This document shows, piece by piece, positions 5,494 through 49,284 of a stretch of 64,000 nt of DNA. The notes beneath the pieces were generated by a model, which saw only the letters and a list, made by a program, of their open reading frames with translations, searched no databases and was not told the origin of the DNA. Numbering within the stretch: the first letter of the stretch is position 1; every line of letters begins with the position of its first letter. Source of the DNA: Shigella phage TB004. The stretch lies in the sequence record MW822011, one strand, 5' to 3'. A program made the position numbers and the translations under genes.

Positions 5494-5522
5494 TTTACAG
5501 AAGGGTAGTAGTGTGATACTAT
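5493..5522 (+). promoter_or_regulatory. Early promoter-like element
   Basis: GTTTAC, 17-nt spacer, -10-like ATACTAT, upstream of ORF 5548. Confidence 0.45.
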
Positions 5523-5547
5523 TACCCTATAAACTAAGGAGAATAAA

Positions 5548-5790
5548 ATGAGATTACAACGTCAGAGCATTAAAGATTCAGAAGTTAGAGGTAAATGGTA
5601 TTTTAATATCATCGGTAAAGACGCTGAACTTGTTGAAAAAGCTGAACGTCTTTTGCGTGATATGGGATGGGAAGATGAATGCGATGGATGCCCTCTTTAT
5701 GAAGATGGAGAAAGCGCAGGATTCTGGATTTACCATTCTGATGTTGATCAGTTTAAAGCTGATTGGAAAACTGTGAAAAAGTCTGTTTGA
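5548..5790 (+). CDS. Hypothetical protein (80 aa)
   Basis: ORF with AAGGAGAA SD. Confidence 0.6.
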   Translation: MRLQRQSIKDSEVRGKWYFNIIGKDAELVEKAERLLRDMGWEDECDGCPLYEDGESAGFWIYHSDVDQFKADWKTVKKSV

Positions 5791-13819: not shown

Positions 13820-15408
<1,589 letters not shown>

Positions 15409-15410
15409 GC

Positions 15411-15466
15411 TGTTTACAAGTCCCTCGTGTTGTGTTATAGTAATCTTACTGACATAACATGAGGAC
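15411..15466 (+). repeat. 56-bp early-promoter cassette, copy 1 (GTTTAC, 17-nt spacer, TATAGT, then a downstream stem-loop/RBS segment); PeSL-like
   Basis: 55 of 56 nt identical to 29670-29725; ends at the alc start. Confidence 0.75.
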
Positions 15467-15469
15467 TTT

Positions 15470-15976
15470 ATGATGGATTTACAGCTTATTACTACTGAAA
15501 TGGTCGTTGAAGCATACGGTGATACTACAGATGGGATTTCTGTATTTAAAGGAAATCGTCGAGTTGGATATATCACCGATCTTAAGAAAGATTTAGCTAA
15601 GCAAGTCAAGCGGAAAACGACCATTAAAGAATATCGAAATCGTCGTCTTGAGCAAGCCCGTGATATGCTTCCTGATGCAGTTGAGGAGATGAAAGTCTTT
15701 TTAGAAAATCAGCTTGCGAAATATGATTGTGATGTGTTCATTAATCAGACTCAACCTAATGTTCATATTAACAACTGTAAATGCTATATCATCGTTAATC
15801 CTTTGACGGGAAAACATCGTCTTGGAATTAGTAATCCAAATCGTAGCGCATCAGATATGGCAGAAGATGTTGAGGCATGCTTTAAAATTTCTAAATCTCC
15901 GGCTGAACATCATATTTTAATTAACGGTCTTTCTCAAGACGATATTGTAGAGGTTATTAAAACTTTATGCAATTAA
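15470..15976 (+). CDS. alc: Alc, host transcription terminator on cytosine-containing DNA
   Basis: 168-aa ORF directly after rnlA, as in T4; size matches Alc (~167 aa). Confidence 0.8.
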   Translation: MMDLQLITTEMVVEAYGDTTDGISVFKGNRRVGYITDLKKDLAKQVKRKTTIKEYRNRRLEQARDMLPDAVEEMKVFLENQLAKYDCDVFINQTQPNVHINNCKCYIIVNPLTGKHRLGISNPNRSASDMAEDVEACFKISKSPAEHHILINGLSQDDIVEVIKTLCN

Positions 15977-18735: not shown

Positions 18736-18765
18736 GTTTACTTTAAGGCAGAGTTGTGATATTAT
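18736..18765 (+). promoter_or_regulatory. Early promoter-like element
   Basis: GTTTAC, 17-nt spacer, TATTAT, upstream of ORF 18796. Confidence 0.45.
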
Positions 18766-18795
18766 AGCTCTACCAAAACAAATGAGGAAATTGAA

Positions 18796-19323
18796 ATGAG
18801 CGAATGGTTTGAAGAAGATAAGGTTTATCGCTTTAAAGCTGGATATAAAGATATTTTTAATGAAACCTGCGGGGCTAATAAACGAATTGCCCAGTTTATT
18901 GGGGAAAATTCATTTAAAGTAAAAATAGATCCTGCGAAAAATGTTATTAGCATTAAACGTGAAATTGATGATTGCTGGTATAAAGCTGTTGATGTAATGG
19001 GCGAATCCTATAAAGTTAGCCCGTTATTTTCAATTGCTTATATGTTGGAATATTCTTTTTTCGAAGAAGTTCAAAAAGATGACTCTGTCAGTAAATTTGA
19101 AATTAAAGCTGATAAAGAAATTAAGTGGAAAGTAGTAGGTATTACTGGTTGTATGTTTTATATCTATGCTCAAACTGATACGAAGGAAGAAGCTAAAAAG
19201 AAAGCTCTAGAATATCTCGAAGAGTATGAAGAAGGTCCGGTAATGATTACTCAAGATGCTGAATTAGTTTCTGTCAAATTAGTTAAAAACGTTGAAAGTA
19301 AGGAGCTTGGATCAACATGCTAA
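18796..19323 (+). CDS. Hypothetical protein (175 aa)
   Basis: ORF with GAGGAAA SD and its own upstream promoter-like element. Confidence 0.6.
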   Translation: MSEWFEEDKVYRFKAGYKDIFNETCGANKRIAQFIGENSFKVKIDPAKNVISIKREIDDCWYKAVDVMGESYKVSPLFSIAYMLEYSFFEEVQKDDSVSKFEIKADKEIKWKVVGITGCMFYIYAQTDTKEEAKKKALEYLEEYEEGPVMITQDAELVSVKLVKNVESKELGSTC

Positions 19324-22819: not shown

Positions 22820-22848
22820 GTTTACTTTGGTACAGGATATGATATTAT
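22820..22848 (+). promoter_or_regulatory. Early promoter-like element
   Basis: GTTTAC, 17-nt spacer, TATTAT, upstream of ORF 22873. Confidence 0.5.
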
Positions 22849-22872
22849 ATACCTATACCGCAATTAAACATC

Positions 22873-23250
22873 TTGGAGAATAAAATGAACTACATCAACT
22901 TTGAACGTAAATATGTTTCTAACGGTATTGCAGGTTCTATTGATACTATCTGCCTTTGGAAACATCAAAATGGATCAGTATGCGAAATTGAACAGTATAT
23001 GACTCCTAACTACGTTTATATGCGATTTGAAAATGGCATCACGGTTTCAATCACGAAAGAAGGTTCTTCTTTTAAAATCGCATTAGATGATGATTTTCGT
23101 CAACGTGATTTAGGGACTCATCCTTGCTGGAATGGCGTCAATCGTAAGCTTCTGGTTAAAACTTGGATTCGTCATATTCTGAGTAACAGAGCTAAACCTG
23201 AGCATCTTGAAGCGATCTTTGATGTAGTTCTTAACGAATTTGATATTTAA
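22873..23250 (+). CDS. Hypothetical protein (125 aa)
   Basis: ORF with TGGAGAA SD; followed by an AGGGGC-ttcg-GCCCCT hairpin at 23259-23274. Confidence 0.6.
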   Translation: MENKMNYINFERKYVSNGIAGSIDTICLWKHQNGSVCEIEQYMTPNYVYMRFENGITVSITKEGSSFKIALDDDFRQRDLGTHPCWNGVNRKLLVKTWIRHILSNRAKPEHLEAIFDVVLNEFDI

Positions 23251-27018: not shown

Positions 27019-27203
27019 AAGCTTACTTAGAAACAATTGTCGTGGCTCAAAAAGAAGGTGGAGATGTTTCTACTTCTGTATCACAAATCGTTCTTGAATT
27101 TGTAGATGCATATGCTTATAATAAATTCACAGAAACATTTGATGCCTATGAAAAAGGTCCAAAGTTTGAAATATATCGTACTCTCTTACCATTAGATTAT
27201 TAA
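27015..27203 (+). CDS. Hypothetical protein (62 aa)
   Basis: Small ORF coupled to the ligase stop; followed by a hairpin. Confidence 0.5.
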   Translation: MKAYLETIVVAQKEGGDVSTSVSQIVLEFVDAYAYNKFTETFDAYEKGPKFEIYRTLLPLDY

Positions 27204-27226
27204 AGGCCTTCGGGCCTTTAATTTTA
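27202..27226 (+). terminator. Hairpin (AAAGGCC-ttcg-GGCCTTT) with an A/T-rich tail
   Basis: 7-bp stem with UUCG tetraloop, between ORF 27015 and alt. Confidence 0.55.
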
Positions 27227-27261
27227 TAAATAGAATAAGAATAAACACTAGAGAGGATATG

Positions 27262-29310
27262 ATGGAACTCATTACAGAATTATTTGACGAAGATACTACT
27301 CTTCCGATTACAAACTTAAATCCAAAGAAGAAAATACCGCAAATTTTTTCAGTTCATGTTGATGACGCAATTGAACAACCAGGCTTTCGTTTATGTACCT
27401 ATACATCTGGAGGTGATACTAACCGTGATTTAAAGATGGGCGATAAAATGATGCATATTGTTCCTTTTACATTAACTGCTAAAGGTTCAATTGCTAAATT
27501 AAAAGGTCTCGGTCCAAGCCCAATTAATTACATCAATTCAGTTTTTACTGTTGCGATGCAGACGATGCGGCAGTATAAAATTGATGCCTGCATGCTTCGT
27601 ATTCTTAAGTCTAAAACTGCTGGTCAAGCTCGACAAATTCAAGTTATTGCTGATAGACTTATCCGTAGTCGTTCAGGTGGCAGATACGTCCTTCTTAAGG
27701 AACTCTGGGATTATGATAAAAAGTATGCATATATTCTTATACATCGCAAAAATGTATCACTAGAAGACATTCCAGGAGTTCCGGAAATTAGTACCGAGCT
27801 CTTTACTAAAGTTGAATCGAAAGTCGGCGATGTTTATATCAATAAAGATACTGGAGCTCAAGTAACTAAAAATGAGGCAATTGCAGCATCTATCGCACAA
27901 GAAAATGATAAACGTTCTGACCAAGCTGTTATTGTTAAAGTTAAAATTTCCCGTAGAGCAATTGCGCAAAGTCAATCATTAGAATCTTCTAGATTTGAAA
28001 CACCAATGTTTCAAAAATTTGAGGCTTCAGCAGCAGAATTAAATAAACCCGCCGACGCGCCTTTAATTTCTGATGCTAACGAATTAACTGTTATTTCTAC
28101 TTCAGGATTTGCATTAGAGAATGCTCTTAATAGTGTTACAGCTGGAATGGCATTCAGAGAAGCTTCTATAATTCCTGAAGATAAAGAATCTGACGTTAAT
28201 GCAGAAATAAAAAATAAAGCTTTAGAAAAATTACGAAAAGAATCTATTACTTCAATAAAAACTTTAGAAACTATTGCTTCTATCGTCGATGATACTTTAG
28301 AAAAATATAAAGGTGCTTGGTTTGAAAGAAATATTAACAGACATTCGCATTTAAACCAAGATGCTGCAAATGAGTTAGTACAAAATTCTTGGAATGCAAT
28401 AAAAACAAAGATTATTCGAAGAGAATTACGTGGATATGCTCTTACCGCTGGATGGTCATTACATCCTATAGTCGAAAATAAAGATTCATCTAAATACACA
28501 CCAGCGCAAAAACGCGGAATTCGTGAATATGTAGGTTCAGGATATGTAGACATGAATAATGCTCTTTTGGGATTATATAATCCAGATGAGCGTACAAGTA
28601 TTTTAACAGCACCTGAAATAGAACAAGCCATTGATAATTTAGATTCAGCCTTTAAAAATGGTGAACGATTACCAAAAGGTATTACTTTGTATCGTTCACA
28701 ACGAATGTTACCTTCAATATATGAAGCACTGGTAAAAAATCGAGTTTTTTATTTTAGAAATTTTGTATCAACATCATTATATCCAAACATTTTTGGTACT
28801 TGGATGACTGATTCAGCTGTGGGTGTTTTACCAGATGAAAAGCGTCTAAGCATTTCTGTCGATAAAAATGATGAAGGGCTTGTTAATTCTAGCGATAATT
28901 TAGTTGGAATTGGATGGGTTATTACTGGAGCTGATAAAGTCAATGTTGTTTTACCCGGTGGAAGTTTAGCACCTTCAAATGAAATGGAAGTCATTTTGCC
29001 ACGTGGATTAATGGTCAAAGTCAATAAAATAACTGATGCATCTTACAACGATGGAACAGTTAGAACTAACAACAAGCTTATTCAAGCTGAAGTTATGACC
29101 ACAGAAGAACTCACCGAATCGGTAATTTATGACGGTGACCGTTTAATGGAAACTGGTGAATTGGTTACAATGACAGGTGATATAGAAGATAGAGTTGACT
29201 TTGCATCGTTTGTTTCATCAAATGTTAAACAGAAAGCAGAATCATCTCTTGGAATTATTGCGTCTTGCATAGATATTGCAAACATGCCTTACAAGTTCGT
29301 TCAAGGATAA
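27262..29310 (+). CDS. alt: Alt, virion-packaged ADP-ribosyltransferase
   Basis: 682 codons from ATG at 27262; MELITELFDEDTTLPITNLNPKKKIPQIFSVHVDDAIEQPGFRLCTYTSGGDTN...; GAGGA SD. Confidence 0.9.
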   Translation: MELITELFDEDTTLPITNLNPKKKIPQIFSVHVDDAIEQPGFRLCTYTSGGDTNRDLKMGDKMMHIVPFTLTAKGSIAKLKGLGPSPINYINSVFTVAMQTMRQYKIDACMLRILKSKTAGQARQIQVIADRLIRSRSGGRYVLLKELWDYDKKYAYILIHRKNVSLEDIPGVPEISTELFTKVESKVGDVYINKDTGAQVTKNEAIAASIAQENDKRSDQAVIVKVKISRRAIAQSQSLESSRFETPMFQKFEASAAELNKPADAPLISDANELTVISTSGFALENALNSVTAGMAFREASIIPEDKESDVNAEIKNKALEKLRKESITSIKTLETIASIVDDTLEKYKGAWFERNINRHSHLNQDAANELVQNSWNAIKTKIIRRELRGYALTAGWSLHPIVENKDSSKYTPAQKRGIREYVGSGYVDMNNALLGLYNPDERTSILTAPEIEQAIDNLDSAFKNGERLPKGITLYRSQRMLPSIYEALVKNRVFYFRNFVSTSLYPNIFGTWMTDSAVGVLPDEKRLSISVDKNDEGLVNSSDNLVGIGWVITGADKVNVVLPGGSLAPSNEMEVILPRGLMVKVNKITDASYNDGTVRTNNKLIQAEVMTTEELTESVIYDGDRLMETGELVTMTGDIEDRVDFASFVSSNVKQKAESSLGIIASCIDIANMPYKFVQG

Positions 29311-29313
29311 ATC

Positions 29314-29699
29314 ATGGAACTTATTACAGAATTATTTGACGGCGCTTCGGCGCCGGTTGTTAACTTAAATCCTAAGCATAAAATACCACAAATTTTTGCT
29401 ATTCAAGCCGGCGAAGAAAGCGTGCTTCCTGGATTTAGATTTTGTACATACACCTCTGGCGGTGATACGAATAAAACGTTAAGCCGGGCGATAAAATGAT
29501 GCATATCGTAATGATAGGTGTTAATGAGAAACTATCATTAGTTAAGCTTAAAAACTTGGGTGGAAATCCAATTGGTGTCATTAATGCTGTTTTTGATACT
29601 GCTCTTCAAACAATGAAACAGTATAAAATCGACGCATGCCTATTACGCGTACTAAAAAGTTCAAAATGTAGTTTACAAGTCCCTCGTGTTGTGTTATAG
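29314..29699 (+). pseudogene. Frameshifted, 3'-truncated paralog of the alt 5' region (two short ORFs)
   Basis: MELITELFD...NLNPKHKIPQIF...PGFRFCTYTSGGDTN parallels Alt residues 1-53; a 1-nt length difference gives a TGA, and the next frame resumes MMHIV...QTMKQYKIDACLLRVLKS parallel to Alt residues 64-117; similarity ends at the promoter cassette. Confidence 0.75.
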
Positions 29700-29725
29700 T
29701 AGTCTTACTGACATAACATGAGGAA
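29670..29725 (+). repeat. 56-bp early-promoter cassette, copy 2 (PeSL-like)
   Basis: 55 of 56 nt identical to 15411-15466; ends just before ORF 29732. Confidence 0.75.
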
Positions 29726-29731
29726 CACAAA

Positions 29732-30022
29732 ATGAAATCTTCTTTACGCTTTTTAGGTCAAGAACTTGTAGTTGAAGGCGTTATTCCTGCTGATAACGCT
29801 TTTAATGAAGCGGTTTACGACGAATTTATCAAAATTTTTGGAACAGATAAAAAGTTCGGAATTTTTCCTTCTGAAAATTTTTCAAAGCCAGAACAGACTG
29901 AAAGCATTTTCCAAGGTGTAGTAACAGGTAAATTTGAGTCAGAAGCTCCGGTAAAAATTGAAGTTTATATTGAAGACAATTTAGTTGCTTCAGTTGCTGC
30001 TTTTATTTCATTCCGTAAATAA
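29732..30022 (+). CDS. Hypothetical protein (96 aa)
   Basis: ORF driven by promoter cassette copy 2; convergent with gene 54 and followed by a shared hairpin. Confidence 0.6.
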   Translation: MKSSLRFLGQELVVEGVIPADNAFNEAVYDEFIKIFGTDKKFGIFPSENFSKPEQTESIFQGVVTGKFESEAPVKIEVYIEDNLVASVAAFISFRK

Positions 30023-30026
30023 AAAT

Positions 30027-30048
30027 ATGGGGACCGAAAGGTCCCCAT
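30027..30048. terminator. Bidirectional hairpin terminator (ATGGGGACC-gaaa-GGTCCCCAT) between convergent ORF 29732 and gene 54
   Basis: 9-bp stem with GNRA loop, exactly between the two convergent stop codons. Confidence 0.7.
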
Positions 30049-30050
30049 TG

Positions 30051-31016
30051 TTATATTGCTCCTAATATTTTACTTTGCGAGTTGACAATTCCCGTCATAG
30101 TATTAATGTTTGAAATGCTTCCCGCAGTTCCTCCTAATCTACTAAGTCGTGAAAGCGAATTAGATAGTCCAGTAACACCTCCACTATTTCCGAGAACGCT
30201 TTGAATGCCATTTATAGCAGCAGATTCAAGCCACTCAAGCGCAGCTTGTCTATCAACCGACCCAGCCTGCATGACTCTATACGCAAAAGTAACATCAAAT
30301 GTAGTTATTTGGTTATCTCCATCATATGATAACTCAGGAGCGCTCACTGACACTGGAATGCATCCAGTGAACATCACCGCAGTATGAGGTAATCCATTAC
30401 GAGCATGAAGATTAACCTGAATATCTGCCTCGACATCTTGTGGCAAAGCACGCAATCCAGTTACTGGGTCTTGAACAGCGTTAACCCAGTCTTGCATTGC
30501 ACGATAGTTACAAGCTTCTGAATCCATTCTAAATGAAATAACCAAAGGGTCTAATTCTCTCCCAGTTATACGAATATTAGGAGAATTATAGTTCCAGTCA
30601 GTTTCATAGGATAATCTATTCTCTGGCATTTTTACGGAATATATCATCAATCCAGATGAGTTATATGCCATGTTAAAGAAGTCAATTAAATATGTACCAA
30701 CTGTAAATGAGCCCAATAAACTTTGAACTGTACGTTGACTCATGGCACCAATAAGATATTTACTAACCCCTGATTTTCTTATCAGTTTTTGTGTGCCAGC
30801 AGTAATTAGCGTGGTAATTCCCTGATTAATATCGCCTTGAGTCAATCCTAACCAATCTGAATTTAGGCCCAAGTTATTATAAGAAAAGTTGCTAATTGAA
30901 CTTATCAACGAAGAGCTTTTAGTTGATGGAGTTGTCGCAAAAACGCAGCTAAACATATTATTACGTTGGAAATCTGCGTTTATTGCTTGATTATTAAATT
31001 CCTCTAAAGAATACAT
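30051..31016 (-). CDS. 54: Baseplate tail tube initiator gp54
   Basis: 321 aa; last gene of the 51-27-28-29-48-54 block; size matches T4 gp54. Confidence 0.85.
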   Translation of the reverse strand: MYSLEEFNNQAINADFQRNNMFSCVFATTPSTKSSSLISSISNFSYNNLGLNSDWLGLTQGDINQGITTLITAGTQKLIRKSGVSKYLIGAMSQRTVQSLLGSFTVGTYLIDFFNMAYNSSGLMIYSVKMPENRLSYETDWNYNSPNIRITGRELDPLVISFRMDSEACNYRAMQDWVNAVQDPVTGLRALPQDVEADIQVNLHARNGLPHTAVMFTGCIPVSVSAPELSYDGDNQITTFDVTFAYRVMQAGSVDRQAALEWLESAAINGIQSVLGNSGGVTGLSNSLSRLSRLGGTAGSISNINTMTGIVNSQSKILGAI

Positions 31017-49043: not shown

Positions 49044-49284
49044 TATTCATCATCCTCGTCTTCGTCATCTTCGTCAGAGTCTTTGTCTTTTTTGTCGTCT
49101 TTATCATCACCATCTTCGTCATCATCCTCGTCTTCAGGTTCTTCACCTTCGATTAAGAAATTACGAGCGATAGCGATTTTTTCTTCTTTAATTAAATCAA
49201 TCGTTCTTGCAGCCATGGCTTCAGCAAAGAATTTACGAGCGGCTACGAGGTCGTTTGATTTAATAGCTTCAATTAAACCTTCCA

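Follow-up and report, generated by a model that had tools for sequence, protein, structure and literature searches.

Promoter-early stem-loop (PeSL) cassettes have been described in T4-type phages by Arbiol et al. (2010; PMC2839356) and Comeau et al. (2014; PMC4122927). In the 2010 paper they comprise a strong sigma-70-like early promoter, a stem-loop that overlaps the promoter spacer and the -10 box, a Shine-Dalgarno sequence (SD) and an ATG (PMC2839356). The T4 genes e, soc, 49 and I-TevI are known for hairpins that sequester the ribosome binding site and contain an internal promoter (review, PMC3014915). Here we analyze a 54-nt cassette that occurs twice in a 64,000-nt stretch of DNA from Shigella phage TB004 (sequence record MW822011; the window), once before alc, which encodes an inhibitor of host transcription, and once before alt.-3. 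Our analysis suggests that the cassette is probably a promoter-in-hairpin gate, and that the alc module was copied over the promoter of alt.-3 in the Tequatrovirus ancestor and has been inherited vertically since. It thus belongs to known kinds of element (PeSL-type cassettes and promoter-in-hairpin gating) with a testable twist that is possibly undescribed. Neither the alc leader hairpin nor the alt.-3 promoter replacement is described in the literature that we searched, although older T4 promoter compilations may have noted the near-identity of the two promoters, and alc does not occur in the review of the hairpin-gated genes (PMC3014915).

Both copies lie on the + strand, at 15412-15465 and 29671-29724, and they are identical at 53 of 54 positions. 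A mismatch-tolerant search, with up to three mismatches allowed, gave exactly these two matches in the window, and none of 100 shuffled sequences yielded any match to the 54-nt cassette. The pair is also the longest dispersed direct repeat in the window by repeat scan (54 nt, 98% identical, spacing 14,259 nt); neither the scan nor the mismatch search found a third copy there, and the match between the copies ends sharply at both edges. An earlier note on this DNA, made from the letters alone, had reported the repeat as 15411-15466 and 29670-29725 with 55 of 56 positions identical. The pair is real, but these coordinates are one base off and take in one non-matching base per end, so that identity over the 56 positions is 53/56. 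The note's remark that other early promoters share only the hexamers is borne out by the runner-up promoter repeat, which is 37 nt long and only 70% identical (repeat scan). Chance or convergence as the source of the identity is excluded by the shuffles together with the differing ancestral type of the alt.-3 promoter in outgroups. Copying, which the note had preferred to convergence, is therefore upheld: outgroup alt.-3 promoters are of another type, and outgroup alc promoters are of the cassette type (see below).

Each copy contains a sigma-70-type early promoter on the + strand. In copy 1 (15413-15441) the -35 box TTTACA lies at 15413-15418, an extended -10 TG at 15433-15434 and the -10 box TATAGT at 15436-15441; in copy 2 (29672-29700) the same elements lie at 29672-29677, 29692-29693 and 29695-29700. 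With a 17-nt spacer and the TG, both promoters score 10 of 12 against the consensus. The fifth base of the -10 box is G in both copies, where the T4/PST consensus (TTTACW-N17-TAYWAT) has A. The hexamers proposed earlier hold if the -35 box is read as TTTACA; the TG had gone unmentioned. The start codons expected after the two copies are indeed found, at 15470 (alc) and 29732 (alt.-3). From the promoter geometry with usual spacing, transcription is predicted to begin at A15448 in copy 1 and A29707 in copy 2, within the hairpin described below. The T4 late-promoter motif TATAAATA is absent from both cassettes by motif search. The literature searched yielded neither a genome-wide T4 start-site map nor reporter, ribosome-profiling or protein data on alc or alt.-3.

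Folding prediction turns the whole cassette into a single hairpin of about 20 pairs, spanning 15418-15468 in copy 1 and 29679-29726 in copy 2 (both +). The predicted energies are -24.4 and -23.0 kcal/mol (z-scores -5.05 and -4.57), and 0 of 200 shuffles are equally stable. The 5' arms (15418-15442 and 29679-29701) are encoded by the DNA that holds the promoters, namely the spacer and the -10 box, and the 3' arm is the leader, including the SD GAGGA at 15461-15465 and 29720-29724. Pairing of the spacer CCUCGUGUUGUGU with the leader ACAUAACAUGAGG leaves no base of the SD free, in silico, in either the minimum free energy or the centroid structure. The sole difference between the copies, A/G, sits in the apical loop (15443-15446 in copy 1). 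The 9-bp imperfect inverted repeat of the earlier note is present, but it greatly underestimates this structure.

RNA that begins at the predicted start is unstructured (-3.2 and -3.6 kcal/mol; z-scores -0.75 and +0.49). The computed cost of opening the stretch from SD to AUG is 2.0-2.8 kcal/mol for own-promoter RNA, versus 10.6-13.2 kcal/mol for read-through RNA. Since the predicted start lies inside the hairpin, masking would be limited to read-through RNA and own-promoter RNA would be spared. The sequestration of part of the ribosome binding site that had been suggested is thus both extended and restricted: the hairpin covers the entire SD, yet with its 5' arm upstream of the predicted start it would act on read-through transcripts only. 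Such read-through is expected at both cassettes because the terminator scan finds no intervening terminator-like site on the + strand (none between about 12600 and copy 1, and none from 27150 to 29700, ahead of copy 2) and because a late-promoter motif TATAAATA precedes the alt ATG by 27 nt (27225-27232, +). Over the whole window the motif has 18 occurrences, versus 8.9 expected. Its position before alt fits late synthesis of the packaged Alt protein, and it is the likely source of late transcripts that would cross alt, alt.-1 and alt.-2 into copy 2.

In the mechanism that we propose, polymerase at the cassette promoter would initiate within the hairpin, at about A15448 or A29707, giving a transcript without the 5' arm on which the ribosome site is open. 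Transcripts from upstream (rnlA for copy 1, the late-transcribed alt for copy 2) would carry both arms and have the SD folded away. Translation of the downstream gene would thereby be coupled to the firing of its own immediate-early promoter. The resemblance to e, soc, 49 and I-TevI is close. There too the SD lies in a helix on long transcripts initiated upstream (here by prediction), the proximal promoter lies in the DNA of the 5' strand so that its own transcripts escape (here with the start placed by promoter geometry), and similar structures are conserved in relatives. The temporal logic, however, would be reversed. In those genes the promoter is a late one and the hairpin keeps early transcripts from expressing a late gene, whereas the cassette promoter is immediate-early and of sigma-70 type, and the early gene alt.-3 would be silenced on late alt transcripts.

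The cassette resembles an intrinsic terminator in having a stable stem-loop where an upstream gene ends. Its stem, however, is rich in AU and GU pairs and is not followed by a U-tract, and the consensus scan for terminators is negative at both copies. An intrinsic terminator was rejected as a reading, since neither copy is followed by a T-run. With the Rfam 15 covariance models, neither strand of 15300-15600 gave a match at E <= 1. The leader also contains an AUG, at 15459, that opens a 4-codon mini-open reading frame (ORF; AUG AGG ACU UUA UGA, 15459-15473) overlapping the alc start; its counterpart in copy 2, at 29718, lies within the shared sequence.

The hairpin at alc is widespread among T4-like phages. 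A protein-profile scan of IMG/VR provided 43 alc loci, and about 26 of the 34 distinct promoter-to-ATG sequences, which come from diverse T4-like contigs, fold into a hairpin that pairs the SD (z-scores -3.2 to -7.3). A register search against matched shuffles found an ungapped helix of 9-11 bp between spacer and leader in 18 of 24 representative lineages (p <= 0.004). This helix reaches the SD in 16 of the 18, with the 3' arm ending 3-8 nt before the ATG; the helices of L042 and L049 stop 15-17 nt ahead of that codon. The sequences of the arms vary from lineage to lineage (CCTCGTGTT/AACATGAGG, TCTCCTCATG/CATGAGGAGA, CCTCGTTTGTT/AACAAACGAGG and TCTCCATTTGG/CCAAATGGAGA), and they co-vary with the SD variant, which may be GAGGA, GGAGA, CGAGG or GGGGA. 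When the arms were aligned at fixed length, 94.9% of cells paired, versus 44-53% with the partners slid; two-sided changes are seen in 11 of 11 pairs, and the covariation score is 1.13 versus 0.25 in shuffles (0/500). The single-sequence folds (34 sequences) and the register search (24 lineages) serve as independent controls for this alignment. MAFFT followed by RNAalifold on the full promoter-to-ATG sequences gave no consensus structure, because varying loop lengths push the 3' arm out of register. Scans for the leader in IMG/VR and in metagenome contigs returned 10 and 8 loci, too few for population-level tests. For alc, whose product shuts off host transcription, a hairpin kept by compensatory changes should, on the model above, confine translation to transcripts from its own promoter.

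Several observations weigh against SD masking as the function of the hairpin. The register of the arm alignment was set by the best helix and hence leans towards structure. In three alc lineages (L042, L059 and L049) the hairpin ends short of the SD, and in six it is wholly missing, three of these carrying a small spacer hairpin instead. Across the family, sense and antisense strands fold equally (summed energies -419.9 versus -427.9 kcal/mol), and covariation alone is therefore no proof of a functional sense RNA. Finally, hairpins embedded in the promoter seem to be common to early promoters of the window in general. Three GTTTAC-type promoters on the + strand (5494-5548, 18737-18796 and 22821-22885) have hairpins that span the -10 box and stop before the SD, that at 5494 with a predicted free energy of -16.2 kcal/mol (z-score -4.5). 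Their role may thus be more general than SD masking.

These last hairpins, together with the three alc lineages that have a hairpin without SD pairing, would suit a structure that is mainly an attenuator or terminator, or an RNA 3'-end or processing signal, on upstream transcripts, with SD pairing incidental. A role of this kind has been suggested for PeSL stem-loops, one of which did cut lacZ expression as strongly as rrnB T1 (Arbiol et al., PMC2839356), and it is the main alternative to SD masking. We nevertheless consider this explanation unlikely, as neither copy has a T-run or a terminator call, and as coverage of the SD in 16 of 18 helix lineages, by arms that track the SD variant, is hard to explain without selection for SD pairing.

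The symmetry between the strands bears on another possibility, in which the palindrome acts as DNA (a cruciform or a protein-binding site) on promoter activity rather than as RNA. Most outgroup helices are perfect Watson-Crick palindromes, as this would have it, and there is no family-wide strand asymmetry. When the strands were compared by their G.U pairs and folding energies, however, the Tequatrovirus stem proved to hold three G.U pairs and to fold at -24.4 kcal/mol in sense and -15.4 kcal/mol in antisense, the antisense being 6-9 kcal/mol weaker in this genus. One pair at alt.-3 follows the path C-G to U.G to U-A, and the consistent inclusion of the SD points to a role in RNA. A DNA-level function is thus extremely improbable, and SD masking on read-through RNA is the explanation that we retain.

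Matches to the 54-mer number 997, in 499 phage records, and essentially every Tequatrovirus genome has two. None was detected outside this genus in the phage collection at this search sensitivity, and no complete genome among the 499 records has one or three copies. The search for further copies suggested in the earlier note thus gave no third place per genome in the collection. The annotated features under the matches are the same two sites, the intergenic region before alc and the 3' end of an Alt-like gene. Homologues of alc and alt.-3 are present in many other T4-like genera, and seven outgroup genomes were examined for the ancestral state: VR7 (Gaprivervirus), PhAPEC2 and RB69 (Mosigvirus), VR5 and IME08 (Dhakavirus), Marfa (Marfavirus) and Melville (Gelderlandvirus). 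The gene orders rnlA-alc and alt-alt.-3-gene 54 are kept in all seven, with intergenic gaps of about 56-64 nt. Both gaps hold GTTTACA-N17-TAnnnT promoters followed by an SD, and the promoters are therefore old and positionally conserved.

What differs between the two sites is the type of hairpin. At alc, spacer and SD pair with each other in Dhakavirus, Marfavirus and Gelderlandvirus as they do in the window, though by other sequences (TCTCCTCATG/CATGAGGAGA, CCTCGTTTGTT/AACAAACGAGG and TCTCCGTTT/AAACGGAGA, respectively), whereas the alt.-3 promoters of Gaprivervirus, Mosigvirus, Dhakavirus, Marfavirus, Gelderlandvirus and one further lineage have a small hairpin within the spacer instead. Examples of the latter are GCAC-aaggaa-GTGC, CACA-tgga-TGTG, CCACA-agga-TGTGG, TCCAC-atggaa-GTGGA and ACATCC-atggaa-GGATGT. 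This small hairpin has 4-6 bp, stems that differ and a loop containing GGA (L016-L022 and L083-L085; six lineages), and the same type also occurs at alc in Mosigvirus, L061 and L062. Because the outgroup alt.-3 promoters are all of the small-spacer-hairpin type, an alc-type module must have replaced the alt.-3 promoter in Tequatrovirus. Beyond the 54 nt the alt.-3 sequence is still orthologous to the outgroups, with the C-terminal codons of altB upstream and ACACAAA-ATG downstream. As the flanks remain orthologous, the limits of the copied tract are the -35 box and the SD, motifs common to both ancestral promoters.

The alc module would thus be old and kept with compensatory changes in many T4-like genera, and in the Tequatrovirus ancestor it would have overwritten a different, pre-existing alt.-3 promoter over that same stretch. 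Ectopic gene conversion between short motifs common to both promoters (GTTTACA and CATGAGGA) is the likely route, and both copies would since have been inherited vertically throughout the genus. The cassette offers a clean, dated case in which a whole promoter-plus-leader unit was copied from gene to gene, with its edges at the -35 box and the ribosome binding site, and it indicates that regulatory modules, and not genes alone, are exchanged inside T4-type genomes.

Within a genome, the alc and alt.-3 cassettes are no more alike than background (41-68% identity; the cross-genus mean is 57-61%) except in Tequatrovirus, where the spacers are 100% identical, and in VR5. In VR5 (L018) the leader is 96% identical between the loci, with accttacacaaacatgaggagaacattATGAA in both, and the 3' halves of the two cassettes are identical over about 30 nt through the ATG. 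This is not so in its congener IME08 (L020), whose leaders are 68% identical. VR5 has thus undergone a second, independent and partial conversion, which the contrast with IME08 indicates to be recent and which apparently ran from alt.-3 to alc. A conversion in Mosigvirus was also considered, as the leaders there share 'atcaacaaca.gagga'; it was rejected, the identity being no higher than background.

We put forward more tentatively that the alc promoter-hairpin is a conserved, portable 'self-insulating' module that allows translation from its own transcripts only, and that was transplanted whole at least once, to alt.-3, with a separate partial event in VR5. If true, this would account for host-shutoff genes such as alc staying strictly immediate-early despite pervasive read-through, and phage engineering would gain in these 54 nt a compact, insulated cassette for gene expression.

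Independent homogenization of the kind seen in VR5 raises the question of whether the near-identity in Tequatrovirus is kept by continuing gene conversion (concerted evolution) rather than by a single replacement and vertical descent. Two shared variants could be read in the same way: L014 and L015 each have 16A at both loci, and L014 also has 27C at both. The co-occurrence of 16A is non-significant in the 11 Tequatrovirus genomes with both copies, however (Fisher p of about 0.15, hand calculation), and variants in these genomes are mostly locus-specific, 11T and 15T persisting only at alt.-3. Moreover, Tequatrovirus flanks are about 97-99% identical anyway, and 0-3 differences per 54 nt need no homogenization. 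Concerted evolution is for these reasons quite unlikely, and we favor one replacement followed by vertical descent. Among the variants is GTTCCTTATG, found in several alt.-3 copies; it pairs with the GAGGAAC present there and eliminates a bulge, stabilizing the stem (-25.7 and -26.9 kcal/mol). Together with the C-G to U-A path described above, this is modest evidence that the stem is under selection at alt.-3 as well.

The comparison with the PeSL cassettes can now be made in full. The promoter TTTACA-N17-TATAGT is close to the T4/PST consensus, the overlap of the stem-loop with the spacer and the -10 box corresponds to a subclass in the 2010 paper (PMC2839356), an SD and a start codon stand at the 3' end, and the element is prone to recombine with other promoter cassettes. 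There are also clear differences. The T4/PST stem-loops are placed just upstream of the promoter in the 2014 paper (PMC4122927), whereas that of the cassette runs across it; the SD itself makes up the 3' arm, with covariation of the arms and the SD across genera; a terminator-like T-run is lacking; the neighboring genes are syntenic and conserved, rather than ORFans in a hyperplastic region; and the sole detectable exchange swapped promoters with no gene gained or lost. The match to PeSL elements drawn in the earlier note thus stands for the architecture (promoter, stem-loop over spacer and -10 box, SD and ATG, as described in 2010; PMC2839356) and does not extend to variable gene content.

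The same holds for the note's further proposal of a mobile element that drives modular shuffling, in which the duplication would mark a site of gene-content exchange. Apart from its PeSL-like architecture, this proposal can point to a cassette that was demonstrably copied between loci and to the region of alt before copy 2, which is polymorphic (90 of 501 records cover >=80% of 29300-30060). The T4-type deletion in altB, the second alt gene, ends 11 nt upstream of the -35 box in an A/T-rich stretch, and Gaprivervirus has, between rnlA and alc, an additional ORF preceded by a promoter-hairpin of its own. However, rnlA/alc and alt/alt.-3 are neighbors in 7/7 outgroups with promoters already at both sites, so that the promoters predate the copying; the other end of the altB deletion has no cassette, the junction being a 9-nt microhomology inside the gene; and native orthologous flank adjoins the 54 nt on both sides. 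The 499 records and 997 places give no sign of a deletion, duplication or mini-circle insertion between the copies. When the flanking genes were compared, as the note had suggested, no gene-content difference started at a cassette boundary, a result near to what the note itself had named as counting against its proposal. Gene shuffling by this element is accordingly very unlikely, and copying of a promoter module between two old promoter sites remains the explanation that we prefer. The PeSL idea is narrowed to that extent, since a PeSL-like element recombined here without moving any gene.

The extra ORF encodes 78 amino acids (ORF243c, annotated as Alc-like) and is found between rnlA and alc in VR7 (L016, 17011-17316) and also in L033, L034 and L063. 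It is preceded by a different promoter-hairpin that overlaps the -35 box (AAGGGG-tgtacaag-CCCCTT) and then by a T-rich run, and where it intervenes alc has no promoter of its own.

The window belongs to Tequatrovirus, being 97-99% identical to many T4-like phages, T4 itself included, and its + strand is the direction of the T4 early genes. Copy 1 lies between the stop codon (15406-15408) of rnlA, which encodes RNA ligase 1 (14284-15408, +), and the ATG of alc (15470-15976, +; PF17527, E 1.4e-91). Copy 2 shares sequence with the 3' end of the remnant ORF alt.-2 and stands before the ATG of alt.-3, a DUF5498 gene (29732-30022, +; PF17602, E 6e-64). By comparison with intact altB, alt.-1 and alt.-2 (29314-29699, +) are the remnant of this second alt gene, with about 72% identity between their 5' part and the beginning of alt (27259-29310). 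In other Tequatroviruses altB is intact, and its stop codon TAG directly adjoins GTTTAC; the T4-type deletion removed about 1.69 kb, with the microhomology CTAAAAAGT of the junction at 29652-29660.

Downstream of copy 2, a bidirectional terminator-like hairpin on both strands (30027-30048) lies between the convergent alt.-3 and gene 54 and ends the alt.-3 transcription unit. It is perfect, 9 bp long and GC-rich (ATGGGGACC-GAAA-GGTCCCCAT). Elsewhere in the window, imperfect 9-nt periodic repeats (TCATCATCCTCGTCTTCGTCATCTTC and similar) occupy 49047-49144 and probably encode an acidic tract on the minus strand.

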